Positions 21,244-63,270 of a DNA stretch of 64,000 bases are shown piece by piece. Source of the stretch: an uncultured Lentisphaeraceae bacterium (GTDB taxonomy: Bacteria > Verrucomicrobiota > Kiritimatiellia > RFP12 > UBA1067); contig CAYOQJ010000039.1 in NCBI GenBank assembly GCA_964406095.1, positions 24,139 to 88,138 on the forward strand, read 5' to 3'. Both the position numbers and the translations under genes were made by a program. The notes below the pieces were generated by a model, which made no database searches, was not told the DNA's origin, and worked only from the letters and a program-made list of their open reading frames with translations. Every line of letters starts with the position of its first letter. The first letter of the stretch is position 1.

Positions 21244-21505
21244 CGAGAAAATCCTCACTTCTTTCAAAAAAGAGTAAAAAGGATATCAAATCGATAAACA
21301 AAAAGGAAGCGAATGTTTGGTGTTTTTATTGCTGCCTGAAGTTGAAAGGGTTGCCCATATTATCAAGTTATGTCACGGGATTGCCATACGGCAGCATTTA
21401 TGAAATAATAAAACCGTTTTGAGGAGAGCTGGGGATGTTAGAAGCAAAGATTGATGAACCGGAAAATCTTTTTGTGATAAAGTTGAAAAGTGAGATTACT
21501 GTTTG

Positions 21506-22468: not shown

Positions 22469-22477
22469 AAGATAATT

Positions 22478-26402: not shown

Positions 26403-26411
26403 GGTGTTGTT

Positions 26412-28131: not shown

Positions 28132-28143
28132 AGGTGCTGAAAA

Positions 28144-34390: not shown

Positions 34391-34563
34391 TATTGGCAGT
34401 CCTTCCTAACTTTCGCATTGATAAGAAATTAAACACTCATTTCAACTCAAATCCGTAAATTTTTCAAGGGAAAAATACAAAATAAAAACGCTTGCCATAA
34501 ATCCCAATAAAAGCGACAATAAAAGGATGCTAAAAGGCGGATCAGATGCGTGTTAGGAGTGTT

Positions 34564-35439: not shown

Positions 35440-35507
35440 ACGGTTGGTATATTTTATGCTTTTACAGTTTTAAGGAACCTGAATCATAGATAGTGTGGAT
35501 TATTGTT

Positions 35508-41500: not shown

Positions 41501-42110
41501 TACCTCGAACGGGTTTGAGCAACTTCCGCCCGAGAGTGCTTTAACCGAGTACACCTACGGACTGAATAATATCGCCGGTGATGTCCATCTGCAGGCTACT
41601 ATCAATCTGCGTGAGGATTTGATCGATTATCAGGGCGACTCGTCGGTGTTGAACTGGATCATGGGCTTCCCTGAAGCGCCGCTGGTGCCGATGTTCTACA
41701 ACGGACACGAACTGAGTCTCAAAGAGCAGTTCTGGCTGGATGCCAATCCGACTGCCTCCAATGAGTTCGCCTGCGTGATTCGTAATTTCGAATTCGATGA
41801 TCAGACCAATCTGCATGTCAGGATTGAAATGCGGCTCAATGACAACAACATGACCAATATTCAAGGTGACGCCGTGTTGAAACTGGAGTCAAAAGAGGAT
41901 ATGCTCGCTGAAGAGTGGGATATGATCAAGCAATTTTATCTCACTCCGGATTCGTTTGATATCAACAATCAGTGTCATATGGTAATCAACAATCCCTTCG
42001 GATTCATTATCACCAATTATGGGCGTGAAAGCTTCTTCATGCGCATTGTGATCGAACATCAGGATCCGCGTGTCAGAATCTACGAACTTGAAAATGAGCC
42101 CCCTGATTGA
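35508..42110 (+). CDS. giant secreted protein (~2200 aa) composed of repeated jelly-roll/lectin-like and Ig-like modules plus a lamin-tail-domain-like segment
   Basis: One uninterrupted ORF. Signal peptide MRGNFRILILFLSFLFGFRVLA. It contains an internal tandem duplication and recurring SPxx..G.G...F...(V/I)(V/I)DN(I/V) modules. The track start is GTG 35493; ATG 35508 gives the canonical signal peptide. Confidence 0.85.
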   Translation: MRGNFRILILFLSFLFGFRVLAYNTLPNSRFLTFDDYDDSVWTHTGDPAPGFIGVNLKDGTVHEHNAGWLLNNVRSGYAGSYGRTVPPVVATNCAANLRNADDAEILSPYYSDGLGTINFDAVNSESATAIGVYIATNMNYSGGGLAEMQPQEDATHTNNWKLVETIALNHSADFGRYSVAVNYTGAARFKIVRPSAASTSTLVDDQFIVVDNIQVSYVPPYVGLSQTAFDLTPAPDFSSGSLTLRCTVDHYSATHSDFNNTTVEVWYRTASEAEGLFGDWNTLPAEYVADTGDANGNGREYEVIIALAKEGAIEYYYSCSFDGHFVPQDYTDTGYDYPYSSESLAPQHLYADGMNGNTPFSDEWAFGSTPPVTELPNSRILILNDYTDPRWTHQGDDAPAFVGQALRNGTYHFDDNGWILSDARFGFAKSFGRIVPPVEGSPSFSLFPLTIPTNNACCFRNVAGGYIESPYYEGGVGTVYFEAVNSEASSKVNVYWATDMDLTNTPTYIEHAPIMPEEGGGYVYNWRLLDVVELNYSVSGEFARYRRKLNYRAPVKFKIVRPKKESTSSDFDDQFVVVDNVRISPPPADVVITRSEVVHNPGYPNANQDFTVRCTVDNADPNEPTEMRSVFLVSRWRYLDQTVQEWQTNQMEYVQGSGDADDNGEVYRITVPQIGQEGDLEYYFTCFFGGFVYESPDYTASGVDYPYPTENLSPRTLRQTGPDMGDWSIRLRPYDSRYGAVYIVADQYEEPIGMRLVGDHQWQGMVPLPLISPTNLTWCLMAEKEHLDGETSFETNRLYWANSVPFTGAVPTLPYGGLCAETNSAARIEIAVTDGGYMEVNFNTENLEFLVNRAEYQNFNSWTARDEYFSDSSGQVDKQRFENTFNEWEISEEDVFIEPFTSLSVTDFNYKREPFATPSDWVGGSARYAQERTLDLFYKPAGILDYRNLALRLRGGDPILGLGYVYNQVAALPDGLKEVRFRARIGQSTDNFDISYYKDSFTEFNYVFQASVRCGKISPENPSISVVGYYSDPGQFYELRVTQIEDGRDTENNFQDKRVELALYKWVGGVSTRLGNSQFYNNFNMKEKTLPIRIGFYNVSSSQTRIKCSYGTASFTQLDSSSPLTMGSFGVLSSECEAYFSAMRTYVANSDADPANTSYANLMTASDWFTPLNVYEYRPSGNPEGIYKIIPEQQLDIYLQPADYETTTGASVLGTLDWVLHDQKTVANFEYDEIVLDLNDWQANYVLLQVGAGGNDVAVDELQLTSWHGKKIGIGDIDDDEWYTAEGWVVPDLTAPDITNNLMRLDLTRADPDVDQAIRSRYLDNGLGMVEFNYRVITPPARITVQHSREYDQNDWYDVKSFYVSNVTDWAHASAYLGSNTNGYFRVLNNREGGYANAVVEFDNVIVWDEPYVDITSWKAYNTRITSTDPQRLLLDEGKSCYLNNSYTDQVDPTPLDRDAPNLQSPVLVNGFGKLSLLARAYEPGEPVSVYVYASTNGWHLPVEEWPLIHTFADIDHEYYKPYSYKPVDGSMYDAIRLETVAGVGLKRACIDEVVISEPVYPGFDIVNVNLRLMERDGSFGSRTQPLPFEDVHLEATLANQQLSPSNIVLYVSYYIGDDIWGAENWFNSPEVVTKRMHQVVGEPNRYETRNDDGGIAGLPQSQIGGITGTDAGEVVQYRVWASYMGGIPLYEYQEIFINPLWYYPVNFNVSRAAEGWSPYYIVYSVPPSTVWVNEVNGSDLIWDSNFTTQHGIWENAYIEIAVPAWLDLGGWKIDLVTSSSYNNHTIQIPPGLPQQVAVTNGYAFFVIAEAIPPYQQTPALPKVDFAYAGLASLMPQIVPGGIRLRRPEGMYEQTIAYDDATWNTGGDFYDGSVWAANDPEGFFIYVGAEKSDGSLSRVGQGDSTNSWVYPLFPEWGQEDPNFALNYTPGMPNGAQWLPDGDELFPGTSNVMIRSNITQLRASQNGKRVLDYSLRMRVGSQTNITYDVDSWYRLVSVTSNGFEQLPPESALTEYTYGLNNIAGDVHLQATINLREDLIDYQGDSSVLNWIMGFPEAPLVPMFYNGHELSLKEQFWLDANPTASNEFACVIRNFEFDDQTNLHVRIEMRLNDNNMTNIQGDAVLKLESKEDMLAEEWDMIKQFYLTPDSFDINNQCHMVINNPFGFIITNYGRESFFMRIVIEHQDPRVRIYELENEPPD
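35583..37661 (+). repeat. intragenic tandem duplication: two ~350-aa units (35583-36632 and 36633-~37661)
   Basis: Colinear conserved blocks appear in both units: LPNSR(F/I)L, WTH(T/Q)GD.AP.F(I/V)G, SPYY..G(L/V)GT(I/V).F(D/E)AVNSE, NW(K/R)L(V/L), (R/V)FKIVRP, DDQF(I/V)VVDN(I/V), (L/V)RCTVD, EYY(Y/F).C.F.G, DYT..G.DYPY. Confidence 0.85.
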
Positions 42111-49225: not shown

Positions 49226-49954
49226 TTGATTGAAATTTTTGAATTTGCGAGAGATAAAAAGTTGAACCTGATATTGAGATTATGCGTTGCAGTGGCAATT
49301 GGTTTATCTGTTATCGGGCTCAGCGGATGCGCGACGATCAGTAAATTTGCCAGTAGTTTGAAAGAGCACAACCCGTCCGATGATCCGGGGTTCGGTGTAC
49401 AGGCGGAGTTTGTCGAGTTTAAAGAGGGCCAACCCCTGATCCGATCAGGACTGACACTGCGGATCGGAGTGACAGCTTCGGGCGACTCGGCCGTGCAGGA
49501 CGTGACCAAAGAGGTCGATCTCAACGGACAGGTGCTTATGCCGCTGATCGGCGCTGTCAAATGCGAGGGGTTGACGGTTATAGAACTGCAGGAGGTACTG
49601 ACCGAGGCATACAGAAAGTATTTTATCGAACCTCAGGTGACGGTCAACTTTATGTACCAGCCTGGAATGAAGTCCCCTTGGGGTACGGTGCTGATGACCG
49701 GTGAAGTTGCGAAGTTCGGTCCGGTGGATATGCCTTCAACCCGTGATTTGACGGTGACCCGCGCACTGATGATGGCAGGCGGAACAACCCCGCTGGCCAA
49801 CAAGAAAAAGGTGCTGGTCTGGCGCAGGAAAAAAAACGGAGAGCTGACAAAATTTGAAGTTGATATAGAAGCGATCGGCAAAGAGGGCAGGCAGGAGCTT
49901 GATATAAAGTTGAAACCGGGTGATGTGGTCTTTGTGCCCGAGTCGTGGTATTGA
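49226..49954 (+). CDS. Wza-like polysaccharide export lipoprotein (Poly_export + SLBB)
   Basis: Lipobox VIGLSG|C. Segments LNGQVLMPLIGAVKCEGLTVIELQEVLTEAYRKYFIEPQVTVNF and SLBB-like LTVTRALMMAGG...LKPGDVVFVPE. The start is uncertain (TTG 49226 or TTG 49262). Confidence 0.8.
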   Translation: MIEIFEFARDKKLNLILRLCVAVAIGLSVIGLSGCATISKFASSLKEHNPSDDPGFGVQAEFVEFKEGQPLIRSGLTLRIGVTASGDSAVQDVTKEVDLNGQVLMPLIGAVKCEGLTVIELQEVLTEAYRKYFIEPQVTVNFMYQPGMKSPWGTVLMTGEVAKFGPVDMPSTRDLTVTRALMMAGGTTPLANKKKVLVWRRKKNGELTKFEVDIEAIGKEGRQELDIKLKPGDVVFVPESWY

Positions 49955-49978
49955 ACCTTTACGTGAAGGAGTAGATAG

Positions 49979-50893
49979 ATGAAAAAATTGACATCAATAT
50001 GTGTGATTGCGGCATGTATCTTCAGTTGCCTCGGTTCGCTCGCTCAGGGCGTTGAGCTGAAAAGATCGCAGTGGCTCAAGAAAATCGGTGAGTCAGTTAT
50101 GGATGCAAAGATTCTTAACGACACCTTTGCTCAGATTCCGGATTCCGACAAAGTTGAGTTTGTCGAACGCATTATGAAGGCGGTATCGCGCATGCCGGTC
50201 GAACCGGAGAAAAAGGCGGCCACCTTTGTCAATGTTGCCGTTGATTGTATTCAGGGTGCCAGAGGCGATATTCGCTATGATGTAATCGCCGAGGTTTTTG
50301 CGACCGTTCCAGTCGTCTTTCTGCCGGTTGTCACCGAGGAGCTCTCCAAACGCTTCAATCAGGAGTTTAATAAACTTTCTGATGAAGACTATGAAAAGAT
50401 TGCCACATCGGTCATGCGGATTGCTGCTGAGCGCAACACCCGAACCGCTGATCCCGCCGTGCGGGATACCTTTGTGGCCCTTGCCTTTCTACGCGGCACG
50501 GATAATACAGCACTGGAAGCGAAACTGCTGGAACTTATCGGTGATGAGAGAACCGAAAGACTTGTCGCTGGATGGTTGCCCGCGGCGCTGAACGGTGACT
50601 ACGCCGCCCTGCTCGCCGCTGCCGATGTCGAACCACTCAAAATCAATGCTCGGGAGTTTCAACGCCAGGTTGGCCACTCCAATATAGAGGGGATGGTATC
50701 CACCCTCCGTTCCGGCAGTGTCATGGAACAGCTTTTCGTAGACACCTGGGTTACCGATACCACCGGTTTTAATGAGCCGACCGATTTCGGTGTCAACCGT
50801 ACACCGCGATACTATCCGGTTCCACAAGGTTACCAAAACCAGAAAATCAGCGTCATTAGATGCCCATGGTGTTCCCCCTGCAAAATAAAATAA
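49979..50893 (+). CDS. secreted hypothetical protein (304 aa), helical, Cys-rich C-terminus (RCPWCSPCKIK)
   Basis: GGAG lies 7 nt before the ATG. Signal peptide MKKLTSICVIAACIFSCLGSLAQG. I recognised no motif. It is embedded between the export-locus genes. Confidence 0.65.
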   Translation: MKKLTSICVIAACIFSCLGSLAQGVELKRSQWLKKIGESVMDAKILNDTFAQIPDSDKVEFVERIMKAVSRMPVEPEKKAATFVNVAVDCIQGARGDIRYDVIAEVFATVPVVFLPVVTEELSKRFNQEFNKLSDEDYEKIATSVMRIAAERNTRTADPAVRDTFVALAFLRGTDNTALEAKLLELIGDERTERLVAGWLPAALNGDYAALLAAADVEPLKINAREFQRQVGHSNIEGMVSTLRSGSVMEQLFVDTWVTDTTGFNEPTDFGVNRTPRYYPVPQGYQNQKISVIRCPWCSPCKIK

Positions 50894-51012
50894 CATCACC
50901 TTGAGCAGGTCTGCAGGCCTCTGACCGGATTACCATAGGCACACACCGTTTTTTAACGGTCGAAGGAGAGCGATATGATGCAGTTCCAACTATTTGAAGG
51001 AGTGCAAAAGTT

Positions 51013-52224
51013 ATGACAAATAAGAAACAATTAGTCGTGGGGATGATGGTTTTTACAGGGTTGTTGCTGAAAGCTCAATCTTCCGGCGCGGAGGAGCCGA
51101 ACGGGTTGAGATATAACAATCTTTCCGTTTCACCCTATGTGAATCTTGAGTATACCTATGACTCCAATGTGAACTACTCCAGTGATGACGAGGAGGATGA
51201 CAATATCTTTTCAATTCATCCGGGAGTCGATCTGAATTACAAGGGCAATGACTGGGGGCTCAACGGTACCGCCTGGTACCGTCGCGATTTCTATCAGGAC
51301 AACGACCGGCTGGATGAGGACAGCTACGGCGAAAGTGTCGACTTCTACTGGGAATCGCCGCGTGGTCTCAGCTTCCTGCTTGGGCAACGCTATGTGATGA
51401 GTTCCCAGAGCGATTCGCTGACCTCCGAGCCGAACGGACGGGGCATGTGGCGTGACCGCAATGAGTTTGAGCTCAGCGGCGCCCTATCCTACGCTTTCAG
51501 CGAGAGAACCCGCGCCACCATCAACGCCATGTACTACGACCTGTGGTACGATAACGATGGTGATCAGTACCGTCCGCTCTATGGCTGGGAGGAGTATTCG
51601 GTCGGGCTGCAGTTGGCCCGCCAGTTGACCGCCAAGAGCGATTTTCTTATCAATGGTTCGTATCAGGAGTATAAGAGCGACGGGGCGGTTCGAGGTGTAA
51701 GCTCCGACAGCTCCGGTTATACGCTCATGGCCGGTTTCGGTTCACGCGCCACCGAAAGAATCAAATACAATCTGCTGGCCGGTGCCTCGATGTTCGACTA
51801 CGCCGAAGGTGATCAGCTGTACGGTTTTGTCTATAATGCCAATGTAAGTTGGTTGCTCTCACGCAAGTGGGCCGCTACCTTCGCCGGGTCAAGTCAGTTC
51901 CAGCCCAGCGAACGCGAAGCCAATCAGGCTACCCAGAACTATACGGCATCTTGCGGTTTAACTTACAAAATGACCCGCCGTCTGACCGCTTCGATGGATT
52001 TGGCCTACCGCCGTGAGGAAAATGAGTACAGCTACGATTACGGCAACGGAGTAGAAAGTTCAAGCAGCGACGACCGCTACTCCGCGCGTCTGATGACCCG
52101 CTATCAGTTGAAGAAATACGCATCACTCTACGCCGGTGTTGAATATGAGGATCAACGCTCTGATGATGAGCAGAGCGAGTTTGACCGCTTTCGCGGGAAA
52201 TTGGGGTTGAGCCTGCGCTACTAG
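51013..52224 (+). CDS. outer-membrane beta-barrel protein of polysaccharide-export loci (BBP2-like)
   Basis: It has a signal peptide, alternating amphipathic strands rich in Y/G/S/D, and a C-terminal LGLSLRY ending in an aromatic residue. Confidence 0.7.
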   Translation: MTNKKQLVVGMMVFTGLLLKAQSSGAEEPNGLRYNNLSVSPYVNLEYTYDSNVNYSSDDEEDDNIFSIHPGVDLNYKGNDWGLNGTAWYRRDFYQDNDRLDEDSYGESVDFYWESPRGLSFLLGQRYVMSSQSDSLTSEPNGRGMWRDRNEFELSGALSYAFSERTRATINAMYYDLWYDNDGDQYRPLYGWEEYSVGLQLARQLTAKSDFLINGSYQEYKSDGAVRGVSSDSSGYTLMAGFGSRATERIKYNLLAGASMFDYAEGDQLYGFVYNANVSWLLSRKWAATFAGSSQFQPSEREANQATQNYTASCGLTYKMTRRLTASMDLAYRREENEYSYDYGNGVESSSSDDRYSARLMTRYQLKKYASLYAGVEYEDQRSDDEQSEFDRFRGKLGLSLRY

Positions 52225-52258
52225 GTAACAGCCGGTTTGTGATATCACTTTCGTAAAG

Positions 52259-52296
52259 GCGTCTGCGCGGTGTTGTGAGGCATGCCAGACGCTTTT
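52259..52296 (+). terminator. candidate rho-independent terminator after the beta-barrel gene
   Basis: The 7-bp stem is GCGTCTG (52259-52265) / CAGACGC (52286-52292), followed by TTTT (52293-52296). The 20-nt loop is long, which weakens the call. Confidence 0.35.
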
Positions 52297-52318
52297 CTGA
52301 TCGGAGTATTGTTCAGCT

Positions 52319-53725
52319 ATGCTTCAGAGACTATTTACAAAATATTGGCTCGCGTTCAATATCGGATTCACCGTTGTCCTGTCATGGCTGATTCTTCCGC
52401 GATCAATCAGGTCATCCAGTTTTTCTTTTCTGCTGTTGATGTCGTTTCTTATTGTCGAGATGACACTGTTGCTACCCTCGGTTTATCGCGGGGAGACGCT
52501 GCAAACCGCCAGGGTGCGCGTGCTCTCAAATTTAAAGCGTGATGGATTTACCTACGCCGCCCTTTTCATGCTTCTTTATCTTGGTGCCCAGTGGCTGAAT
52601 GGTGGTTTGGAATCAGTTTACGATATCAGGGCCGGAGTGTGGGGTTATCAGGCACCCGATGCCGCATGGCTGCCCAGTAGCATCAAAAGCGATGATGCTT
52701 TTCGGGCTTTCAATGTTGCCACTGCTCTGCTGATAATCGGGTGCGCTCTGCGCAATGCTGTGGGCAAACGGGCCAAACGGGCTTTGTTGCAATGGCTCAG
52801 TGTGTGTAGTGGGGTCTTCGCTCTTTTTGCCGTAGCCACGGGGTTGTTCGGCAGTGAGCCCTACTCTACCTATATGTATATGCCACTGACATGCGGCTGG
52901 GGCACCTTTTTCGGGTTCTGGATGATTGTTGCGATCGGAGCATTTGCAGAGTCCCTTTCGTCGCAAAGCGGCAGACCCTACCTGGTTTATATTTTAGGCA
53001 TAGCTTGCAATTTGATCGGAGTCCTGTTTTACGCATCGTTGCCGACTACGCTCTTCTATATCGGCTTAAGTATTATTCTGATGATTTACGCCGGTATATC
53101 CATCGCATTTCATACGCCTAAACATTTCAATGTCAAAATGTTCTTTCTTACCGTTTTTGTGTATCTCTCGATCTTAGGAACCGGTTTCTTTGCTTTGCCG
53201 GAAGGAGCGGTAGCAACCAAGATTAACGGTGCTTCAGAGATGACAGAGCACTTTGAGCAGCATGCCGCCACCAGATCAGCACGGATGGATGCGGCAATGC
53301 AGATATGGCAGGATCACATTTGGTACGGTAGCGGAGTCAACGGGTTCGAACACTATCTCGGCTCCGTGCTTGATAATCAGGCTTGGAGCAAGATACGTGC
53401 TGATAAAGGTTTTGTTTACAATGATATGGTGCAGATTCTCTGTGAGTTTGGTGTGCTGGGATCGGCGGCCTTGGCAGCCGTGATTGTCGTACTGCTTGTT
53501 CCGCTCTTTTATCGTGCCCATATCGCCTGGGTCAAAGATACCCGCGACGCTAACGCCGGACGCAAATATATGTTGAGGATTTCTCCCGTTGTCGTTACCG
53601 GTACGATCGCCATTCTGGTGTGCTTGGCGGAATCATTCGCCGCCAGCCCGTTCAGAATGCCGGCTATGGTTTTTTCTTTTTTTGTCGTCCTTTTAACAAT
53701 GCCGACCTTTCTGCCAGCTCGCTGA
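52319..53725 (+). CDS. O-antigen ligase / Wzy-like polytopic membrane protein
   Basis: More than 10 predicted TM helices. A periplasmic loop carries RMDAAMQIWQDHIWYGSGVNGFEHY, typical of the O-antigen-ligase (Wzy_C) domain. The start codon is uncertain. Confidence 0.7.
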   Translation: MLQRLFTKYWLAFNIGFTVVLSWLILPRSIRSSSFSFLLLMSFLIVEMTLLLPSVYRGETLQTARVRVLSNLKRDGFTYAALFMLLYLGAQWLNGGLESVYDIRAGVWGYQAPDAAWLPSSIKSDDAFRAFNVATALLIIGCALRNAVGKRAKRALLQWLSVCSGVFALFAVATGLFGSEPYSTYMYMPLTCGWGTFFGFWMIVAIGAFAESLSSQSGRPYLVYILGIACNLIGVLFYASLPTTLFYIGLSIILMIYAGISIAFHTPKHFNVKMFFLTVFVYLSILGTGFFALPEGAVATKINGASEMTEHFEQHAATRSARMDAAMQIWQDHIWYGSGVNGFEHYLGSVLDNQAWSKIRADKGFVYNDMVQILCEFGVLGSAALAAVIVVLLVPLFYRAHIAWVKDTRDANAGRKYMLRISPVVVTGTIAILVCLAESFAASPFRMPAMVFSFFVVLLTMPTFLPAR

Positions 53726-53758
53726 CTGTAAACGATTTTTTGAGTGAGGAGATGTTTT

Positions 53759-56284
53759 ATGAGTGATAACCACAATTCCGGCTCTGAGTCAAGAGCCAGT
53801 CGCCCGATCTATTATGGTGGACAGAACCCGGCGGCTGAGGCCGCTTCTTTACCACATTCTTCGGCTCTCTATTACGGCGGCCGAAGTCCGGCTGCTTACG
53901 CCACCACAGCCAGATCACCGGCTCTTTATTACGGCGGTGCTGCGCCGACGGCGGGATACCCTGGTGGTTATGGTTACGGTGCTGGCGGCTACTACTACGG
54001 CGGTGCTGGCAGTGGTATCAGCGACGATGATGATTCATTGACCGGCGCAATTACCATCGGTCGTATGATCCGTGTCTGCTCACAACGCTGGATAACGATT
54101 TTTGTATTCGTGATAATAGGGCTGGTTGCATCATTTGCAGTCTTTAAAATTTCCCCGGTTGTGTATGAAGCACGCGCCGTCTTTGAAATGAGCTTGCGTC
54201 GCCCCTCGGTGCTGGGTCTGCGCGAGGCGGTCATCGACACCTCTCAGGGAACAATGAGTGAAGTTTTCAATACGCGTTTGGCTCGTCTGCGTTCACGCGC
54301 CGTGATCGATCAGATTGTGACTCAGTACCGTAGCGATTACCCCAGTTCTACTGTCTCTGACGAGGAGCTGATCAGTACACTGGTCAACTCAGAAATGGAG
54401 TTGCAACGTCGCTCAATGCTGATCACCATCACTGTGCAGTCTACCGATAAAAAACTGGCGGCCGATCTCGCCAATGCCTACGCCAAGGCCGCCGAAACCT
54501 TCACCGCCGAACAGAACCGCAATCAGTCTGAAATGGCCGTCGCTTGGCTGCACACAACCACCGAACAGCAGAAACGCGCACTAGAACGCGCCGATAAGGA
54601 GATGCTGGAGTACCGCGTCGCCCACCAGCTCGACACAATGGAGAATGAAAGCGAAATCGCCAAACAGTCGCTGGCAAATGTTAATACCGAAATAATGTCA
54701 CTGCAAAGCGAGCTCACCAAAGCCCGCGAACTGCAGAAAACTCTGGAGGCAATCCAGAATGAGCCTGAAAAATTCGGCAGTCTGCCTGAGTCTATCCCGC
54801 GGACAGCCGAGATCGGAATAGCCTATGCCAAGCTACTCACCGCACTCGCTGATAAAAATTCACTGATGGCCCGCTATACCGCTAACCACCCCGAAGTGAA
54901 GGTTAAAGAGAAAGAGGTTGAAATATACCGACAGCAATTTGCCGATGTTGTCTATCGCGCCCTTGAAACCTGTAAGGCCAATGTCGATCTGTTGCAGCGC
55001 CAGCTGGGCCAGATGACCCCTGAACAGGAACGATTGATGAAAAAGATTTCCGATCTTGAACTTAAAACCGTTACAGCACAGATGAAACTTGATCAGCTGG
55101 CTCGAGAACGCGAGGTCGCCGATATCAACTATAAAGCATTGCTGCAGCGTACCAATGAAGCTCAGCTCGATGCCGATCAGAACACCGCCCTGATCAAACA
55201 GGTGGAACAGGCCTTTGAACCAAACCGGCCGGTCAAACCCAATCCGATGATTATCTTTCCCGCCGGACCAGTGCTTGGTTTGATTTTCGGGATCCTCTTT
55301 GTTTTGGTACTTGACCATCTGGAAGATAAGATCGTTGGTGTCTCCGATATCGAACAGCGCTTGCGTCTCAAAACACTGGCCGTTATTCCGCATGTGCGCC
55401 GAAAGAAAAGAGAGCAGCTCGCGCTTGCAGTCAAAAATGAAAAATTTTCACAGTTTGCCGAGGCCATCGCTGGCTTGCGCAATCTGCTGGATTCCCCGCG
55501 CTACGCTGAGATCAGCAAGGTCTGTCTGTGTATGAGCACCCAGCCAGGTGAGGGTAAAACTATCACCTCTAGCTCGTTGGCAATATCCTGCGCCCAGAGT
55601 GGACAGAAAACACTGCTGGTGGACTGCGATATGCGGCGCCCGCGCCTGGCCCGTATCTTCGAGAAAAAATCAGCGGAGTATAAAAGCTTGCCCCACCGCA
55701 TACGCGAAGGAGGCGTCAGCAGCTTCGATGATCTGTCGGTTGCCTCCGGCATCGAAAATCTTGACTTGGTGCTCTCAAAAGCCTCATCGGAAATCAATCC
55801 CGCCAACCTGATGGGTAGTGGCTCCATCAACGAGTTTTTCGCCTGGGCGCGACAGAATTATGATCGCGTCTTTATCGACTCGCCGCCCTACGGTATCGTC
55901 GGCGATGTTATGGTGCTGGCCTCACTCTCCGATGCGGTCATGATGATGTGCTGCCCGGATCGCACCCGCTTCCGCCCGATTAAACATGCCGCCAGAACCC
56001 TGACCGAATCCGGCGCCCGTGTGATCGGTGTCATCGTCAACGATGTCGACTTCGGACGGCGCAACCAGTTCAGCCAGTACGACTATCACTACCGCTATGC
56101 CTATCGCTATACCTCCCGCTACGGCGCGTACGGGCAAGGGAAAAAATTTGGCATCGGCGGAGTCGGCAAGAGTAAGAAACAATCACCCGAAACAGCTATG
56201 CTGGACGACGATGATCTCACCCCGTCCGCCGCGACTATGCCACGGGATGTCGTTGACCATTCAATGCTGGATGACGACGATTGA
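53759..56284 (+). CDS. Wzc/GumC-like polysaccharide co-polymerase fused to BY-kinase, with Tyr/Gly-rich N-terminal extension
   Basis: GAGGAG lies 7 nt before ATG 53759. Features are a TM helix, a long coiled-coil periplasmic region, a second TM, Walker A STQPGEGKTITSS, Walker B LLVDCD, and a C-terminal Tyr cluster YDYHYRYAYRYTSRYGAYG. Confidence 0.85.
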   Translation: MSDNHNSGSESRASRPIYYGGQNPAAEAASLPHSSALYYGGRSPAAYATTARSPALYYGGAAPTAGYPGGYGYGAGGYYYGGAGSGISDDDDSLTGAITIGRMIRVCSQRWITIFVFVIIGLVASFAVFKISPVVYEARAVFEMSLRRPSVLGLREAVIDTSQGTMSEVFNTRLARLRSRAVIDQIVTQYRSDYPSSTVSDEELISTLVNSEMELQRRSMLITITVQSTDKKLAADLANAYAKAAETFTAEQNRNQSEMAVAWLHTTTEQQKRALERADKEMLEYRVAHQLDTMENESEIAKQSLANVNTEIMSLQSELTKARELQKTLEAIQNEPEKFGSLPESIPRTAEIGIAYAKLLTALADKNSLMARYTANHPEVKVKEKEVEIYRQQFADVVYRALETCKANVDLLQRQLGQMTPEQERLMKKISDLELKTVTAQMKLDQLAREREVADINYKALLQRTNEAQLDADQNTALIKQVEQAFEPNRPVKPNPMIIFPAGPVLGLIFGILFVLVLDHLEDKIVGVSDIEQRLRLKTLAVIPHVRRKKREQLALAVKNEKFSQFAEAIAGLRNLLDSPRYAEISKVCLCMSTQPGEGKTITSSSLAISCAQSGQKTLLVDCDMRRPRLARIFEKKSAEYKSLPHRIREGGVSSFDDLSVASGIENLDLVLSKASSEINPANLMGSGSINEFFAWARQNYDRVFIDSPPYGIVGDVMVLASLSDAVMMMCCPDRTRFRPIKHAARTLTESGARVIGVIVNDVDFGRRNQFSQYDYHYRYAYRYTSRYGAYGQGKKFGIGGVGKSKKQSPETAMLDDDDLTPSAATMPRDVVDHSMLDDDD

Positions 56285-56419
56285 AGCCTGCGCTGAACAT
56301 AGCACGCCTGCGTCAATTGTGTATCACGGTGTGACATTGTGTCTGCCGCAATCAAGTAGTTACCGCTCCAAGTGGCCATTGTGGCGCTTGTTCTGTTGGA
56401 TTATTCTGTTTTTCAGGGA

Positions 56420-56435
56420 TGGCACGCCTTTTGCT
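56420..56435 (+). promoter_or_regulatory. sigma54 (RpoN) -24/-12 promoter
   Basis: TGGCACGCCTTTTGCT matches every specified position of the consensus TGGCACG-N4-TTGCW. GG is at 56421-56422 and GC at 56433-56434, exactly 12 nt apart. It lies 48 nt upstream of ATG 56483. Confidence 0.6.
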
Positions 56436-56482
56436 AAATATGTAAATTCACAGAGTTAAAGTATTACAAAAGGAGATTGAAA

Positions 56483-56710
56483 ATGAAAAACACGATGATG
56501 TATATGGCGGTAGTGGCAGCAATGTACATGGCACCTGCGGCGGTTGAAGCCCAGCAGTGTGGAGCACCTTGTAACAAGGCTGCCAAAGCGAGTTGCACTG
56601 TGCGTAAGAACTGTCCGGAAGGGGATAGCTGCAAAAAAGAGTGCAAAACTGAGTGCAATCAGAAAAAAGCAGCTGAGCGGAAATCATGCTGCCCTAGAAA
56701 CAAGGCTTAA
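56483..56710 (+). CDS. small secreted Cys/Lys-rich protein (75-aa precursor, ~52-aa mature, 9 Cys)
   Basis: AGGAG (56471-56475) lies 7 nt before the ATG. Signal peptide MKNTMMYMAVVAAMYMAPAAVEA|QQ. Mature part: QQCGAPCNKAAKASCTVRKNCPEGDSCKKECKTECNQKKAAERKSCCPRNKA. A strong terminator follows. Confidence 0.7.
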   Translation: MKNTMMYMAVVAAMYMAPAAVEAQQCGAPCNKAAKASCTVRKNCPEGDSCKKECKTECNQKKAAERKSCCPRNKA

Positions 56711-56737
56711 AAACAACTGTTGCATAAAGTCAGAAAA

Positions 56738-56769
56738 GCCGACCAAGTTCTGGTCGGTTTTTTGTTTTT
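56738..56769 (+). terminator. rho-independent terminator
   Basis: Stem CCGACCA / TGGTCGG (7 bp, plus a G-U closing pair), loop AGTTC, then TTTTTTGTTTTT. Confidence 0.8.
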
Positions 56770-56808: not shown

Positions 56809-58176
56809 TTAAAACGACAGTGCGCTCAGGATGGAGTACGACCACTGCATAACCTGCTTGAATTGATCAATCCCGAAAGATTCGTTCGGGCAGTGAATGC
56901 GATCTTCTTCACGACCGAATCCCACCAGCAGCGGCGCCGCGCCTGAGTATTGCCGCAGGGTTGCGACAATGGGTATTGATGCGCCCTCCCATCTGAAAAC
57001 CGCTCCTCGGCTGTCTATGTCGCGCAAAACCCTTTCGGCAATCTGAAATATCGGTGTGTTCACAGCCAGTCGGAAACCGGGTGCTCCCGGTACAATCTCG
57101 GAAAACGAAATTTCAAGCCCGGGCGGACAGTTGCTGACAAGATGTTTCTTCAACGCATTAAGCGTTTGCTCAATCTGCTGACCAGGTACCAGCCGCATAC
57201 TCAGCTTGGCTGTGGCTTCGCTCGGAATAATGGTTTTAGGCCCCGTACCCGTATGACCTGAAAAAATGCCGTTCACCTCGATCGTCGGATAAAAGCCAGC
57301 TCGTTCCACAGGCGGCAGAGCACGTTCACCCCCCAGTGGCAAACAGCCGGTCTCAGCTTGATAAGCATCCGCGCTCAGCTGATCACGGTTGGCCAAAGAG
57401 TGCTCTTCTTCCGTCGGCGCTATCATGCCGTCACAGAACTCAGGCACGGCAATCGAACCGTCTTCATTATGCAAAGTCGCCAGTAATCGCGCTATTCCCA
57501 GTGCGGGATTCGGTGCAACGCCGCCATGTACGCCAGAGTGCAGATCATATTTCGGGCCCTTCAATGTTACGGTTATATTCTGTATGCCGCGCAACGCGGC
57601 TATGATGGCGGGCTGCCCGTTGCTGGCACAGCATGTGTCACTTACCAGCAGAACGTCGGATTTGATCCGATCGCCCAGATGCGGAGCCATCTCAAGGAGT
57701 CCGGCACTGCCGGACTCCTCCTGCCCTTCAATGATAATTCTGATCGTAGGGATGCTTTCACCCTCTTCAATCAAAGCCCGAAGACCCTGAATGAACGCAA
57801 AGCTCTGCCCTTTGTTGTCCTGCGCGCCCCTGGCGTAAACTCTGCCGCCACGCAGGCAAGGTTCAAACGGGGGGCTCTCCCATCTTTCAACCGGATCAGC
57901 AGGCTGTACATCGTAGTGGCCGTAAAACAATACGGTGGTGTCGCATTCGGATGAGACGCGTTCCGCAAAAAGTATCGGCACCGGCAGACCCTGATGCGGT
58001 ATTCGGATTTCAACCTCAAAACCCATGGCTTTGAGATACTTTTTAAGCCAGGATGCCGTGCGGGCACAGTCACTCAGACGCAGAGGATCGGCACCAAGTG
58101 ACGGCAGCTTGAGCAGTTTGAACCATTCAGATAAAATGTGTTCACGGTTCTTTTCAAAATAGTTGTCGATATTCAT
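56809..58176 (-). CDS. M20-family metallopeptidase (dipeptidase/ArgE-DapE-like)
   Basis: VLFYGHYDVQP, GAQDNKGQ and IIIEGQEESGS are the metal-ligand motifs of M20. ATG 58176 is preceded by an AGGAGAG-type RBS. The track ORF extends to 58227. Confidence 0.85.
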   Translation of the reverse strand: MNIDNYFEKNREHILSEWFKLLKLPSLGADPLRLSDCARTASWLKKYLKAMGFEVEIRIPHQGLPVPILFAERVSSECDTTVLFYGHYDVQPADPVERWESPPFEPCLRGGRVYARGAQDNKGQSFAFIQGLRALIEEGESIPTIRIIIEGQEESGSAGLLEMAPHLGDRIKSDVLLVSDTCCASNGQPAIIAALRGIQNITVTLKGPKYDLHSGVHGGVAPNPALGIARLLATLHNEDGSIAVPEFCDGMIAPTEEEHSLANRDQLSADAYQAETGCLPLGGERALPPVERAGFYPTIEVNGIFSGHTGTGPKTIIPSEATAKLSMRLVPGQQIEQTLNALKKHLVSNCPPGLEISFSEIVPGAPGFRLAVNTPIFQIAERVLRDIDSRGAVFRWEGASIPIVATLRQYSGAAPLLVGFGREEDRIHCPNESFGIDQFKQVMQWSYSILSALSF

Positions 58177-58241
58177 CACGCTCTCTCCTGAAATAAAAAA
58201 TCGCGCTTGGAAATTACAGAGAATCAATTAGCCGCACAAAC

Positions 58242-58650: not shown

Positions 58651-61600
58651 ATGAAAAATCAAGCTCACAGTGTTGTCAGGTGTTTCCGGAAAGTAGCACT
58701 GATTGCGCGAAATGGCGGATATCTTGTGCTCTTGACCGGCTGGCTGTTACAGAGCGGTGGTTATGCTGCTGAAAATCCTGAGCTGACGGTCAGTGCCGGT
58801 TGCGAGGTCGACTATCCCCCTTTCTGCATTGTGCACTCGGATGGGAGATCTGACGGATTTGCGGTTGAGTTGCTGCGTGCGGCACTGAATAAAATGGATT
58901 ATCAGGTCACATTCCGGACGGGCGTATGGAGTTCGGTCCGGAGCTGGCTTGAGCGTGGTGAGGTGCAGGTGCTGCCGCTTGTGGGTCGAACACCCGAGCG
59001 TGAGCCGCTCTTCGATTTCACCTTCCCGTTTATGACCATGCACGGCGCGATCGTTGTTCGCAAGGATATGCGGAACGTGCATCAATTGTCCGATCTGAAA
59101 GGTTGTACTGTCGGTGTTATGCAGGGCGACAACGCGGAGGAGTTTCTGCGGCGTGGTCGGCGTGATTTCGGGATATTGGCAACACCGACCTATTTGGATA
59201 CCTTGCGTGCACTTCAATCGGGACAGTGTGACGCTGTTGTGTTGCAGCGGCTGGTGGCCGTGCGGCTGCTGGCCGAAAGCGGCCTGCACGATCTGCGTAT
59301 TGTAGAACGACCCATCCGTGAGTTTGCTCAGGATTTCTGTTTCGCGGTTCAGAAAGGCGATAGCCAAATGCTTTCCTTGCTCAACGAGGGATTGGCCCTG
59401 GTGATGGCCGACGGCACCCACCGCCATCTGCATGATAAATGGTTTGCTCACCTTCAACTGCCGCATGATCGACCGATCATTGTGGGAGGAGATCATAACT
59501 ATCCGCCCTTTGAATTTCTCGACGAAACAGGACGTCCCGCCGGTTTTTCAGTCGAATTGACGCAGGCGATTGCACGCGAGGCGGGGCTGAATGTCAGGAT
59601 TCGCCTCGAACCCTGGCAGAGTGTTGTCAATGGGTTGCACGATGGCAGTGTCGATGCACTTGAAGGTATCTTTTATACCCCTGAACGTGACGCTCTGCTG
59701 GATTTTTCACCAAAATACATAGTGGTCGATTGTGTGAGTGTTGTGCGTAAAGATGCCGGTAATCCGCCTGTCAGTTTTGAAGAGCTGCGTGGACGTGAGC
59801 TGGTTGTTCAGGCCGAGGATGCCATGTTCAACAAAATCATGGAGCACGGTCTTGATCAGCGGATCATAGTTGTCAAAACCCAGGAGGAGGTCGTGCGCAC
59901 GATTGCCGAAGGTCGCGGCGACTGCGGCCTGGTGACGCGCCTGAGTACTCTCTATACAATCCGGAAACATGGCTATACCAATTTGAAAGTCGCAGAAAAA
60001 GCGCTCTACTCCGGGCAGTACTGCTATGCGGTATTAAATGGTAACGATGCGCTTCTGACTAAATTTACCGAGGGACTGCAGGTTGTCAAGAATTCGGGGG
60101 AGTATCAGCGCCTCTATGAAAAGTGGATGGGTGTTTATGAACGTCATTTATCAATTGGCGAGGTTATTAGATATGTTGCCTCAGTCGCTCTGCCGCTGCT
60201 GTTGCTGGTGCTGCTTGTGCTGCTGTGGTCTTGGACTCTGCGGCGGCGTGTCGCGGCTAGGACATACGAACTAAGTGTCGCCAATCGACAGATGCAAGAG
60301 AGTAACGAGAGCTTGTTGAAGATACAGGAGACCCTGCGGCGTAGTGATGAACGCTTCAGCCTGGCTCAGGCACTCTCCGGTGTCGGCGCATGGGAGTGGA
60401 ATTTGAGCACCAATGAGGTTTACTGGTCCGACAAACTGATGGAGCTCTTCGGTTTCGCAGAAGATAAGGGTAAATTCAACGAGTCGTTCGATTCAGTGAC
60501 CGAGTGTATCTACCCCGATGATGTCTCCGCCTGGCGCGACAGCGTTCGGGAGTGTGTTGAGGATGGCCGTGAGCATTGCATGGAATACCGTGTTCTGCTA
60601 CCTGACGGCAGGCTTCGCTGGATCGGCGTTTTTGGTAACGCGCAGCGTGATGACGACGGTAAAGCGATTCGTCTGGTCGGAGTGGCAATGGATGTGACCG
60701 AACGTAAATTGGCCGAACAGGCCCTGAAAGAAGCATACGAAATTATTAACCGCAGTTTTTCCGTCGCGTTCACCTGGCGGAATGCCGAGGGCTGGCCAGT
60801 TGAGTTTGCCTCTGAAAATGTGCTGAAACTTCTGGGTCATAAAGCGGAGGATTTCACGGAAGATAGAGTTTCCTACCTGGAATGTGTGCATCCGGATGAT
60901 CTGCTACGCGTTAAACGGGAGTTCGCTGCTGTATTTGCCGACAGAAATATCGAAGAGATGGTTCATGAACCCTATCGTTTGACCGCCAAAGACGGCACAC
61001 TTAAAGTTGTACGCCACTGGACCTTTGTTATCAGAAACAACGAGGGTCGGGTCACTCATTTCAAAGGCATCGTCGAGGATATAACCAGCCAGCGCAATCT
61101 TGAGAATCAGCTGGCTCAGTCACAGAAAATGGAGGCGGTCGGCCGCTTGGCGGGCGGTGTGGCACACGATTACAATAATATGCTCAATGTGATTATGGGC
61201 TATACTGAGCTGGCCATGGAAAATGAGCAGTTGCGCGAACCGTTACGGGAATATCTGCAGGAGATAGCCGCCGCCGCCAACCGCTCCAAGGCAATTACAG
61301 AACAGTTGCTGGCTTTTGCCCGTAGAGAGACAATCGCTCCACAACTGATGGATATGAACACATCCGTGACTAAGATGCTCGCGATTATCCGTAAGCTTAT
61401 TGGTGAAAATATCGAGTTGTCTTGGTATCCCGGTGAAGGAGCACTGCCAGTCTTGCTCGACCCCTCGCAGCTCGATCAGATATTGGTGAATCTGTGCGTA
61501 AACGCGCGGGATGCCGTTGAGGATGTCGGCAGAATAACGATCGAAATAAGCAACGTTAAAATCGATAACGATTACTGTACCACGCATGCCGATTTCATAC

Positions 61601-62259
61601 CAGGTGATTTTGTCCAGCTGGTCGTCAGCGATGACGGTGTCGGTATGGATAACGAAACACTGGAACATATCTTCGAACCCTTCTTTACCACCAAAAAGAT
61701 TGGCGAGGGTACAGGGCTCGGCTTGCCAATGGTTTACGGAATTGTCAAACAGAATCATGGTTTTATCAATGTTTACAGCGAAATTGGTCGCGGTACAACA
61801 TTCCGGATATATCTGCCCCGTCAGATGGAAGAGACCCCTGAAGAAAATCAGAAGTTGCTTGCTCAACCGTTTAAAAGTGGCAGAGGCATCACAGTGTTGG
61901 TGGTTGAGGATGAGGAGTCGATCTTAAAACTGACAGATAAAATTCTCTCTCGCTGTGAATATGATGTTTTAACCGCCGATTCTCCCGCGAACGCGCTGGA
62001 AATCGCCCGCAGTTATCCCGGTGAAATTGTTTTGCTTATAACCGATGTTGTCATGCCTGAGATGAACGGCAAAGAGCTGGCAGACCAGTTGCGAAGACAA
62101 TATCCCGCTCTCAAGTGCCTTTTTATGTCGGGCTATACCGCCAATGTGATCGTCCAGCGAGGGGTGCTTAAAAAAGGTGTGGATTTCATCCAGAAACCAT
62201 TCGCGGTTAAAACATTTATCCAAAAGGTGAATGAGGTTCTGAACAAATCTGGCGACTGA
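58651..62259 (+). CDS. hybrid sensor histidine kinase: two periplasmic SBP_bac_3-like domains, TM, two PAS domains, HisKA-HATPase, C-terminal receiver
   Basis: Two solute-binding-like repeats (YPPFCIVHSDG..., YPPFEFLDETG...). TM helix VALPLLLLVLLVLLW. PAS blocks, H-box GGVAHDYNNML, and N/G boxes (NLCVNARDA, GTGLGL). Receiver VLVVEDEESIL...LITDVVMPEMNG...FIQKPF. Confidence 0.9.
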   Translation: MKNQAHSVVRCFRKVALIARNGGYLVLLTGWLLQSGGYAAENPELTVSAGCEVDYPPFCIVHSDGRSDGFAVELLRAALNKMDYQVTFRTGVWSSVRSWLERGEVQVLPLVGRTPEREPLFDFTFPFMTMHGAIVVRKDMRNVHQLSDLKGCTVGVMQGDNAEEFLRRGRRDFGILATPTYLDTLRALQSGQCDAVVLQRLVAVRLLAESGLHDLRIVERPIREFAQDFCFAVQKGDSQMLSLLNEGLALVMADGTHRHLHDKWFAHLQLPHDRPIIVGGDHNYPPFEFLDETGRPAGFSVELTQAIAREAGLNVRIRLEPWQSVVNGLHDGSVDALEGIFYTPERDALLDFSPKYIVVDCVSVVRKDAGNPPVSFEELRGRELVVQAEDAMFNKIMEHGLDQRIIVVKTQEEVVRTIAEGRGDCGLVTRLSTLYTIRKHGYTNLKVAEKALYSGQYCYAVLNGNDALLTKFTEGLQVVKNSGEYQRLYEKWMGVYERHLSIGEVIRYVASVALPLLLLVLLVLLWSWTLRRRVAARTYELSVANRQMQESNESLLKIQETLRRSDERFSLAQALSGVGAWEWNLSTNEVYWSDKLMELFGFAEDKGKFNESFDSVTECIYPDDVSAWRDSVRECVEDGREHCMEYRVLLPDGRLRWIGVFGNAQRDDDGKAIRLVGVAMDVTERKLAEQALKEAYEIINRSFSVAFTWRNAEGWPVEFASENVLKLLGHKAEDFTEDRVSYLECVHPDDLLRVKREFAAVFADRNIEEMVHEPYRLTAKDGTLKVVRHWTFVIRNNEGRVTHFKGIVEDITSQRNLENQLAQSQKMEAVGRLAGGVAHDYNNMLNVIMGYTELAMENEQLREPLREYLQEIAAAANRSKAITEQLLAFARRETIAPQLMDMNTSVTKMLAIIRKLIGENIELSWYPGEGALPVLLDPSQLDQILVNLCVNARDAVEDVGRITIEISNVKIDNDYCTTHADFIPGDFVQLVVSDDGVGMDNETLEHIFEPFFTTKKIGEGTGLGLPMVYGIVKQNHGFINVYSEIGRGTTFRIYLPRQMEETPEENQKLLAQPFKSGRGITVLVVEDEESILKLTDKILSRCEYDVLTADSPANALEIARSYPGEIVLLITDVVMPEMNGKELADQLRRQYPALKCLFMSGYTANVIVQRGVLKKGVDFIQKPFAVKTFIQKVNEVLNKSGD

Positions 62260-62325: not shown

Positions 62326-63270
62326 TTAAAAGCGACAGTTCAATTGTAGTGCTCCCGGGTTCAGATAACGTTGCGACAGTAGATATTGGTCATCGTGAAT
62401 CAGCGCGTAGTGACGTAGCAGCACCAGAGGTGCCAGTAGCGGGTAAATACCTTCGTGAAAGCCCGCAATCACATCATGAAGTTCCCGCTTCTCGGTTGCG
62501 GAAAGTAGCTTCTTGAAATAACCGCTGATGTGATCAAGGGTGTTCGTGTGCTTGCGTCTGGTGGCCGGCGTGGACAGTGCCTGCATAAGTGCGGCACGAT
62601 ACTGCGGTGCGATGCTTCTGGCACTACCGGAACTCTCTGCAAGCAACCGCCCAAGTCGGGAGACCTGCGCGGGGTTGTGCGCCATAATCAGATACTTGCA
62701 GGAAGCATGAAAATCCGTCAGAGCTCCGCGTTTAAGACGCGGAGTGTTAATCAGCTCCTGCAACTCTGCGTAGGTGCTGACCTTATCGATAAATGCTTCG
62801 CGCAGGGCCGGATCGTTCAAGCGCCCCTCCTCTTCCACCGGGATATCAGGAAAAGCCCGGATGAACGCCGCTGCAAAGATACCGGTTCCCTTTTTCTGCG
62901 GCATGCTGTCGGCTGAGGTGAAAACCTTGACGCGGTAAAGACCGGAACTCGGCGACTTGCTTTTGAAAACAAAACCGCAGAGTTGCTCGTCAGCCAGACG
63001 CCTCAAAGTAGGTTTGACCCAACGCCGCATCTGCGGAGTTATATCCTTTCCGCTCTTAATTGTCACCAGACGCGGATTCTCTACAGAACCTACCAGCCGC
63101 ATGGCATCACGTGGAATCGGCAGTCCGCACTCTGTTTCGGGACAGAGTGGCACATATTCGACAAAACGCCCCAGTGTGTCCATCAGAAATGAGTCGCGTT
63201 TGTGTTGCCCGTCAAAGCGTACCGGTTCTCCGGTCAAACAGGTGCTGATGCCGATCCGTATCTTTTTCAT
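62326..63270 (-). CDS. DUF523 (TudS/YbbK-like) + DUF1722 fusion protein
   Basis: N-terminal MKKIRIGISTCLTGEPVRFDGQHK is typical of DUF523. The C-terminal helical half resembles the YbgA/DUF1722 pattern (HY.LMAH). Confidence 0.7.
   Translation of the reverse strand: MKKIRIGISTCLTGEPVRFDGQHKRDSFLMDTLGRFVEYVPLCPETECGLPIPRDAMRLVGSVENPRLVTIKSGKDITPQMRRWVKPTLRRLADEQLCGFVFKSKSPSSGLYRVKVFTSADSMPQKKGTGIFAAAFIRAFPDIPVEEEGRLNDPALREAFIDKVSTYAELQELINTPRLKRGALTDFHASCKYLIMAHNPAQVSRLGRLLAESSGSARSIAPQYRAALMQALSTPATRRKHTNTLDHISGYFKKLLSATEKRELHDVIAGFHEGIYPLLAPLVLLRHYALIHDDQYLLSQRYLNPGALQLNCRF

Follow-up and report, generated by a model that had tools for sequence, protein, structure and literature searches.

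A conserved single-gene unit with a candidate sigma54 promoter encodes a predicted exported, cysteine- and lysine-rich mini-protein in Kiritimatiellae

A 64,000-nt stretch of the genome of an uncultured Lentisphaeraceae bacterium (assembly GCA_964406095.1, contig CAYOQJ010000039.1, positions 24,139 to 88,138; "the window" in the following) contains, between a Wzc-like gene and a convergent M20 peptidase gene, a short gene for a cysteine- and lysine-rich peptide. The peptide gene is a single-gene unit, probably monocistronic, of an anaerobic Kiritimatiellae bacterium, and it is conserved in related lineages. An initial annotation of the window had proposed that it is driven by sigma54 and that its product is secreted, with metal binding, redox buffering or a disulfide-knotted peptide as candidate roles. 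The best reading of the comparative data is, tentatively and at somewhat less than even chances, an exported metallothionein-like thiolate protein that is controlled by sigma54 and an enhancer-binding protein. The features of the locus are listed in Table 1.

The open reading frame (ORF) was compared with that of a relative with 65% protein identity (lineage L002). Synonymous sites were saturated (pS 0.78), whereas pN was 0.20. The differences at the three codon positions numbered 10, 16, and 38, and the third position thus dominated. All 8 shared cysteines were kept, 4 of them through changed synonymous codons, and the sole internal indel had a length of 12 nt, a multiple of three. Therefore, the ORF is almost certainly a real gene that is translated and under strong purifying selection. 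A non-coding RNA was also considered and was rejected on account of the codon-position pattern. The translation start had originally been placed at ATG 56483 behind an AGGAG motif. The Shine-Dalgarno (SD) motif, AAGGAG, ends 7 nt before this ATG and belongs to a block (CACAAAAGGAGA) that is kept in the relatives. This start was preferred over TTG 56477 and over the public call of a 70-aa protein because the SD block and an MK(N/K) start are conserved. The product consists of MKNTMMYMAVVAAMYMAPAAVEA and, behind the predicted cleavage site, QQCGAPCNKAAKASCTVRKNCPEGDSCKKECKTECNQKKAAERKSCCPRNKA.

Searches based on sequence similarity, which the initial annotation had called for, retrieved very few relatives. 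Word-indexed searches among 5.8 billion sequences, with the single sequence and with a profile of three sequences, yielded only two related clusters, and a full HMMER scan of 1.84 billion representatives yielded the same two and no more. One is 91% identical and stems from the Kiritimatiellae metagenome-assembled genome (MAG) GCA_018399555.1, the other is 65% identical and stems from metagenomes (P0002). A genome scan with the peptide profile, in which signal-peptide patterns were searched, returned only the known Kiritimatiellae MAG. The peptide had no match in a tblastn search of plasmids, in Pfam, or in NCBIfam, searches of PDB sequences gave noise or nothing, and Pfam at E values up to 10 offered no family for the window protein or five orthologs. 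No literature was found that connects Kiritimatiellae with sigma54, rpoN, or cysteine-rich proteins. The more distant orthologs, which every sequence search had missed, were reached by synteny via the M20 neighbor. This walk led to five further lineages with a small ORF in the same slot, next to M20 proteins that are 65–72% identical to that of the window. The five ORFs encode a homologous signal peptide (...A[LV]VAAM...) followed by a mature part rich in cysteine and lysine. In total, positional orthologs are present in 8 Kiritimatiellae lineages (10 sequences), and this conserved peptide ORF in related genomes is one of the features on which the initial annotation had let its proposal depend.

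The proposed promoter is present, TGGCACG-CCTT-TTGCT (TGGCACGCCTTTTGCT) with the GG-N10-GC spacing, and is the sole exact match to the sigma54 consensus in the window. Such a match alone is not significant, as 0.16 are expected in 64 kb and 15 of 100 shuffled sequences have at least one. The weight of the motif therefore derives from its position and from its conservation in the relatives. GG-N10-GC lies 56–77 nt upstream of the ATG in each of the 10 sequences and thus in 8 of 8 lineages, in spite of the fact that the spacer between the invariant GG and GC has been rewritten (e.g., TGGCACGTTCCATGCG, GGGCACGCAATCTGCT, CGGCATATAATGTGCT) and the remaining intergenic DNA diverges. From the position of the motif, transcription is predicted to start at about 56446. 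No sigma70-like promoter was found between 55800 and 57200. Control of the peptide gene by sigma54 and an enhancer-binding protein is likely in view of these sequence comparisons.

A candidate site for the enhancer-binding protein was found farther upstream. The dyad TATCAC-GGT-GTGACA (TATCACGGTGTGACA) is centered about 117 nt upstream of the predicted start, which is a normal place for an enhancer-binding protein. A 19-mer that includes the dyad (TGTATCACGGTGTGACATT, 56320-56338) is identical at 19 of 19 positions in the window and the 65% relative, despite the saturated synonymous sites. The intergenic DNA of these two is only about 20–60% identical outside four blocks, namely this 19-mer, the TGGCACG and T-TGC parts of the promoter, the ribosome-binding block, and a part of the 3′-UTR. 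Seven of the 8 lineages have kept CAC-N3-GTGACA, which is missing in L023, and the central triplet varies (GGT, AGA, ATA, ACA, TGA, AGG). The dyad is unique in the window even when up to 3 mismatches are allowed. The distance between dyad and start grows to 140–400 nt in relatives because extra DNA has been inserted. An upstream enhancer site had already been suspected at this location, and the location held, but the element did not. The direct repeat ATTGTGT that had been suggested does occur at the positions originally given; however, it reads TTTATGT / ATTATGA in L002-L004, and a 7-nt repeat is at chance level, with five such families within the same 198-nt spacer. The sequence AATCAAGTAGTTA between dyad and promoter is weakly kept in relatives and fits the IHF consensus (WATCAANNNNTTR), and it might be a site of this kind.

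At the other end, the unit is closed by a strong intrinsic terminator, as originally described. Its 13-bp hairpin, which is followed by a T-run, has a folding energy of −17.6 kcal/mol (z = −5), and it probably works in both directions and serves the convergent M20 gene as well. A terminator is kept in three lineages, including L001 and L002, with different stem sequences of equal stability. The 3′-UTR block in front of it (56711-56737, CAACTGTT...AAAGTCAGAAAA) is 78% identical to the 65% relative despite the saturated synonymous sites, and it is not kept in more distant lineages. No Rfam family reached its threshold at the locus.

The first 23 residues were predicted to be a signal peptide by inspection, the criteria being a basic n-region, a hydrophobic core of 12–16 residues, and a small-x-small site. 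The annotated cleavage site (VEA/QQ) and 52-aa mature part were borne out, and all orthologs share the same signal layout with an A/V/I-x-A site. Export of the Sec type is thus probable, and cleavage is predicted after VEA23. No lipobox and no twin-arginine motif was found in any of them, and accordingly a lipoprotein and a Tat-exported or Fe-S protein were rejected. The signal peptide is rich in methionine (6 of 23 residues, in an MxM arrangement). Four of these methionine columns are identical in the window lineage and the 65% relative, and distant orthologs are methionine-rich too; this could be chance or could be connected with the handling of soft metals.

The composition of the mature peptide is extreme. 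It contains 17% cysteine and 25% lysine plus arginine, a single valine is the sole hydrophobic residue, and aromatic residues and histidine are absent. The nine cysteines have exactly the spacing that was first described, C-x3-C-x7-C-x5-C-x5-C-x3-C-x3-C-x10-CC. The lysine count had to be corrected from 12 to 10 (11 in the precursor), and together with 3 arginines the net charge is about +8. Of the operational features of a metallothionein, a low mass, at least 15% cysteine, and the lack of aromatic residues and histidine are found in the window peptide, whereas of the clustered CxC, CxxC, and CC motifs it has a single CC. A tandem 12-nt unit (TGCAAAAAAGAG / TGCAAAACTGAG / TGC, encoding CKKE-CKTE-C) shows that the cysteine number changes by whole C-x3 units: one unit is missing in the relative with 8 cysteines. 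The mature parts in the 8 lineages comprise 47–73 aa with 8, 8, 8, 9, 12, 12, 15, and 15 cysteines, 13–20 lysines plus arginines, 0–3 hydrophobic residues, and at most one histidine or aromatic residue. Only 4 cysteine columns are invariant, half of the positions are not conserved, and the parity is mixed. The larger orthologs of L017, L019, L021, and L023 contain several CKC, CxxC, and CC motifs, and that of L021 holds the internal repeat CKDGCKCPKKAA twice.

The peptide gene is linked to a polysaccharide export cluster. The initial annotation had left open whether its position behind the Wzc-like gene is meaningful, and the link proved to be conserved: in 8 of 8 lineages, the peptide gene is located at the 3′ end of a Wza/Wzy/Wzc cluster. 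Wzc directly precedes it in 6 of the 8, and two sugar-nucleotide genes lie between them in L021 and L023. In three relatives that have the M20 gene away from the export cluster, no such ORF was found beside M20, and thus it is the export cluster to which the peptide gene is tied. Contigs from several metagenomes, including run SRR2989655, encode a peptide identical to that of the window. This run is listed as an accession of a Mahoney Lake study, in which 8 m depth and the sediment were sampled, and the euxinic hypolimnion of this lake contains 30–35 mM sulfide plus polysulfides (PMC4846661).

The candidate roles were ranked with the help of the ortholog series. In the absence of a hydrophobic core, a protein has to be stabilized by disulfides or by ligands. 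A fixed disulfide fold needs a fixed, even framework of cysteines, while metallothioneins do not, and their hallmark is a kept composition together with a drifting sequence and cysteine number and with lysines beside cysteines. Such a fixed, even framework was not seen, and therefore a defined disulfide fold is disfavored. Stable, exposed disulfides are also disfavored because 30–35 mM sulfide should keep them reduced. Among the roles originally listed, the disulfide knot thus loses and the metallothionein-like role gains most, because the number and parity of the cysteines vary and the larger members carry CKC, CC, and CxxC motifs. A metallothionein-like thiolate function remains a cautious suggestion drawn from composition, with chances somewhat below one half.

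The following mechanism is proposed. A sigma54 activator would bind to the dyad TATCAC-N3-GTGACA at about −117 and would open the complex of sigma54 and RNA polymerase at TGGCACG-N4-TTGCT. The resulting mRNA would have a length of about 320 nt and would extend from about 56446 to the terminator. The 75-aa product would be exported by Sec and cut after VEA23, and the mature protein would act outside of the cytoplasm, either in the periplasm or in the polysaccharide layer of the adjacent Wza/Wzy/Wzc cluster. There, the cysteine thiolates, with neighboring lysines to balance their charge, would retain soft metals or metal-sulfide/sulfane-sulfur species in the strongly sulfidic habitat.

Several observations weigh against this proposal. 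The spacings in the window peptide are mostly C-x3-C and C-x5-C, with one CC and no CxC or CxxC, and no metallothionein, Csp, or other family was matched in Pfam, NCBIfam, or PDB sequences. No natural bacterial metallothionein is known to be a Sec substrate, and at 30 mM sulfide hardly any soft metal would be free in solution. AlphaFold predicted a helix-turn-helix hairpin (helix 4-19, turn, helix 24-45). As the pLDDT was low (62) and a Foldseek comparison of the model with the PDB gave no match, the fold was not used as evidence. On the side of regulation, neither the window nor 244 kb of related DNA yielded an rpoN or activator gene; the window encodes no GAFTGA-type activator, as had been stated before, and no RpoN box. 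Three lineages have a spacer between GG and GC that can be read as a sigma70 −10 element as well (TATAAT/TATAAA), and thus a contribution of sigma70 is possible there. A metagenome scan for dyad plus promoter, with a gap range of 68–98 nt that is too narrow for the dyad spacing of the distant lineages, detected one ortholog and five chance matches inside of coding regions, but no other such site and no siblings of a regulon.

The close association with the export cluster invites a different explanation, in which the peptide is a polycation or cross-linker of the matrix. The +8 peptide would reside in the polysaccharide layer, its lysines would bind acidic or sulfated glycans and its thiols would link chains, functionally similar to the sigma54-dependent PEP-CTERM floc proteins. 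The invariable position at the 3′ end of the cluster and the absence of the ORF beside M20 genes without an adjacent cluster fit this role, but the adjacency may reflect shared history only. PEP-CTERM genes usually form sigma54 operons of a single gene near exopolysaccharide (EPS) loci, with an activator motif upstream (PMC1569441), and an RpoN-dependent PEP-CTERM gene is required for flocs (PMC9850573). Several proteins of the export cluster had their best scores against models of the XrtA/PEP-CTERM system, all below cutoff. However, the peptide has no PEP-CTERM tail, no exosortase was seen in the window, and the proteobacterial PrsR motif ends with TTTACA and is unlike the dyad. The window also contains a run of eight genes (21503-29028) for a nonulosonic acid pathway of the legionaminic/pseudaminic type; it includes an epimerase/dehydratase, a DegT aminotransferase, a PglD-like acetyltransferase, NeuB, a UDP-GlcNAc 2-epimerase, a cytidylyltransferase, and an NTP-transferase, and it implies acidic surface sugars, in line with a matrix role. 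Against this stands the very small size of the peptide and its lack of a glycan-binding domain. A matrix role is considered rather unlikely, and as it is compatible with metal binding by thiolates, it could be a complement to the metallothionein-like function as well as a rival.

A disulfide-stapled helical hairpin of the twin C-x3-C type, acting as an antimicrobial or signaling peptide, is improbable. The three C-x3-C motifs, the two predicted helices, the strong positive charge, the export, and the tight on/off promoter would suit it. However, the cysteine number and parity vary (9 in the window; 8, 12, and 15 elsewhere) with only 4 invariant columns, the model has low confidence and no fold match, and the habitat contains tens of mM sulfide. 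A hydrophobic face for action at membranes is absent, and no immunity, transporter, or maturase genes are nearby. The match of P0002 to a defensin-like Pfam family (PF25052) rests on the signal peptide: the full protein scored 25.4 bits (cutoff 25) and the mature part 11.7 bits, and the window protein had no match. A precursor of a ribosomally synthesized and modified peptide (RiPP) or of the SCIFF/ranthipeptide type was rejected, as there was neither an NCBIfam match nor a maturase and the neighbors are Wzc and an M20 peptidase. The last alternative concerns transcription, i.e., that the sigma54 motif is not a working promoter, the gene is transcribed by read-through from Wzc or by sigma70, and the dyad is a part of the 3′ end of the upstream operon. 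In L017, L019, and L016, a strong hairpin with a T-run (e.g., GACAACATGAC...GTCATGTTGTC TTTTTTT) directly follows or overlaps the right dyad half, and this hairpin is probably the terminator of the Wzc operon. No terminator was found between Wzc and the peptide gene in the window, and therefore read-through is possible in the window lineage. The TATAAT-like spacers of three lineages also fit this alternative, and so does the fact that rpoN is only presumed to be present in the genome. On the other hand, GG and GC are exactly spaced in all lineages despite the rewritten spacer, lineages with upstream terminators keep the motif just downstream of them, and the window has no sigma70-like site in the region that was scanned. 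Transcription without sigma54 thus appears very improbable.

Table 1. Positions of the peptide unit, its elements, its neighbors, and related elements in other lineages (window coordinates unless a lineage is given)
Feature	Position	Strand	Remarks
Peptide unit	56285-56769	+	between the Wzc-like stop codon and the convergent M20 gene
Direct repeat ATTGTGT	56316-56322 and 56336-56342	+	flanks/overlaps the dyad
Candidate enhancer dyad TATCAC-GGT-GTGACA	56322..56336	+	conserved; protein binding predicted
IHF-consensus-like sequence	56350..56362	+	between dyad and promoter
Candidate sigma54 −24/−12 promoter	56420..56435	+	GG 56421-56422, GC 56433-56434
Shine-Dalgarno motif AAGGAG	56470..56475	+	7 nt before ATG
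Peptide ORF	56483-56710	+	75-aa precursor, 23-aa signal peptide plus 52-aa mature part
Predicted signal peptide	56483..56551	+	n-h-c layout, Pro at −6, V-x-A before the cut, VEA/QQC
Mature peptide plus stop codon	56552..56710	+	52 aa
Tandem 12-nt unit	56630..56656	+	CKKE-CKTE-C
Intrinsic terminator	56733..56769	+	13-bp stem, then T-run
Export cluster Wza-like / unknown / EpsL-like barrel / Wzy-like / Wzc-like	49226-56284	+ (Wzc-like gene)	Wzc-like gene is the last gene
Wzc-like chain-length determinant / tyrosine autokinase	53744..56284	+	Pfam GNVR, AAA_31, Wzz; NCBIfam TIGR01007 above cutoff
M20 dipeptidase-like gene	56809..58227	−	convergent downstream neighbor, starting point of the synteny walk
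Hairpin after the right dyad half	L017:5990-6045, L016:5830-5890, L019 equivalent	− (L017, L016)	probable Wzc operon terminator
Second sigma54 motif plus ~75-nt block	L019:5776-5934, L020:3403-3565, L021:5848-6009, L023:5860-6020	−	in the spacer before the peptide gene

Additional elements were observed in and around the intergenic region. In four relatives, a second, stronger sigma54 motif (TTGGCACGNCNGGTGCT) lies in the spacer upstream of the peptide gene. Behind this motif comes a block of about 75 nt, made up of a CA-rich stretch (TCACACATAACGACACACCCATACACATAA) and then a hairpin (GAACGCGTCCTCATCCGGGGCGCGTTC) with a T-run. The block is near-identical in all four and far less diverged than the flanking proteins (M20 65–71% identical to that of the window). 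Its sequence suggests a small RNA or a leader that is driven by sigma54; Rfam had no family for the block of L019, L020, L021, and L023. It is absent from the window, and only its hairpin part remains in L016 and L017. In the window, the sequence at 56299-56312 (ATAGCACGCCTGCG) is similar to the −24 region (ATGGCACGCCT) that follows 120 nt downstream, and its AGCA...TGCG columns are conserved in an alignment of five sequences; a second regulatory site or a remnant would be conceivable. An inverted repeat, CCTTTTG / CAAAAGG (56427-56433 and 56467-56473), pairs the promoter spacer with the SD region. Such a structure could arise solely in transcripts that read through from Wzc, where it would mask the ribosome site. 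As the repeat is not conserved in L002, it is probably due to chance, and a conserved switch was therefore rejected. A sigma54-like site with one mismatch (TGGCACCTCTGGTGCT, 62420-62435, minus strand) is located within a coding region or at its end and is probably also due to chance. Two genes downstream of the peptide gene, there is a gene (58651-62259) for a hybrid sensor kinase, which comprises two periplasmic domains for amino-acid binding (SBP_bac_3) as well as PAS, kinase, and receiver domains. This gene is syntenic in L001. An ORF of 2205 aa without an NCBIfam match (35493-42110) follows a protein with a prepilin-type N-terminal domain (34546-35439).

The broadest form of the proposal is a Sec-exported family of the metallothionein type with a dedicated sigma54 activator that is tied to polysaccharide export and with which anaerobic Kiritimatiellae in euxinic water would capture or hold trace metals, metal-sulfide clusters, or sulfane sulfur in their periplasm or capsule. 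It is rather doubtful that all of these features apply. The known bacterial metallothioneins are cytosolic and few, and a natural Sec-exported family of this type would, to our knowledge, be the first in bacteria. Exported thiolate-rich mini-proteins in sulfide-adapted anaerobes would, if real, bear on the acquisition and buffering of trace metals where sulfide removes them, and also on the question of which small proteins are built into polysaccharide envelopes. If the peptide is merely a lineage-specific filler of the envelope, the interest will be modest and local. With its promoter, dyad, single short gene, and terminator, the locus is a clean and compact example on which sigma54 regulation can be tested in a phylum that has received little study, and the ortholog series is a set of natural variants in cysteine number and promoter architecture.

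Parts of the locus have counterparts in known systems. ZraP of E. coli, which is under the control of ZraSR, is likewise a small periplasmic metal-binding protein from a stand-alone sigma54-dependent gene with a dedicated activator. However, ZraP is rich in histidine and glycine, has about 140 aa, and is encoded divergently to its regulator genes, whereas no regulator gene is adjacent to the peptide gene. The bacterial metallothioneins (SmtA/BmtA, and MymT of Mycobacterium) are also very small and cysteine-rich, lack an aromatic core, have cysteines beside lysines, and evolve quickly in sequence and cysteine number. MymT is a Cu(I) binder of 4.9 kDa, and both MymT and SmtA are cytosolic (PMC7558416). 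SmtA has a zinc-finger fold with histidine ligands, in contrast to the window peptide, which has a Sec signal, no histidine, and no detectable similarity to it. Csp1 is an extracytoplasmic protein, a Tat-exported four-helix bundle in which helix cysteines, often C-x3-C, line a Cu(I)-storing core (PMC7558416). As a dimer, the predicted hairpin would look similar to a miniature four-helix bundle, but Csp1 has about 120 aa and a pre-folded, hydrophobic scaffold, whereas the peptide has 52 aa, a Sec-type signal, and no Pfam match. In the same superphylum (PVC), chlamydial OmcA is a small envelope protein rich in cysteine and lysine, and omcA has been reported to be a direct target of sigma54 (PMC7482065). 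OmcA is a disulfide-cross-linked lipoprotein in an aerobic host setting; in contrast, the peptide has no lipobox (VEA/QQC), no Pfam match, and a habitat with sulfide. It is an established arrangement that sigma54 operons of a single gene are located next to exopolysaccharide loci (PMC1569441, PMC3162934). The PEP-CTERM genes with PrsK/PrsR share with the peptide gene the single-gene operon, the long upstream region with an activator motif and a −24/−12 promoter, and the position beside an EPS export locus (PMC1569441). They differ in the upstream motif and in their products, which are rich in serine, threonine, and asparagine, whereas the peptide is rich in cysteine and lysine and ends with ...KSCCPRNKA, without a sorting tail or a match of the TIGR02595 type. 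Judged by these comparisons of sequence, the peptide is a new, lineage-restricted family in which known kinds are combined in a new way.

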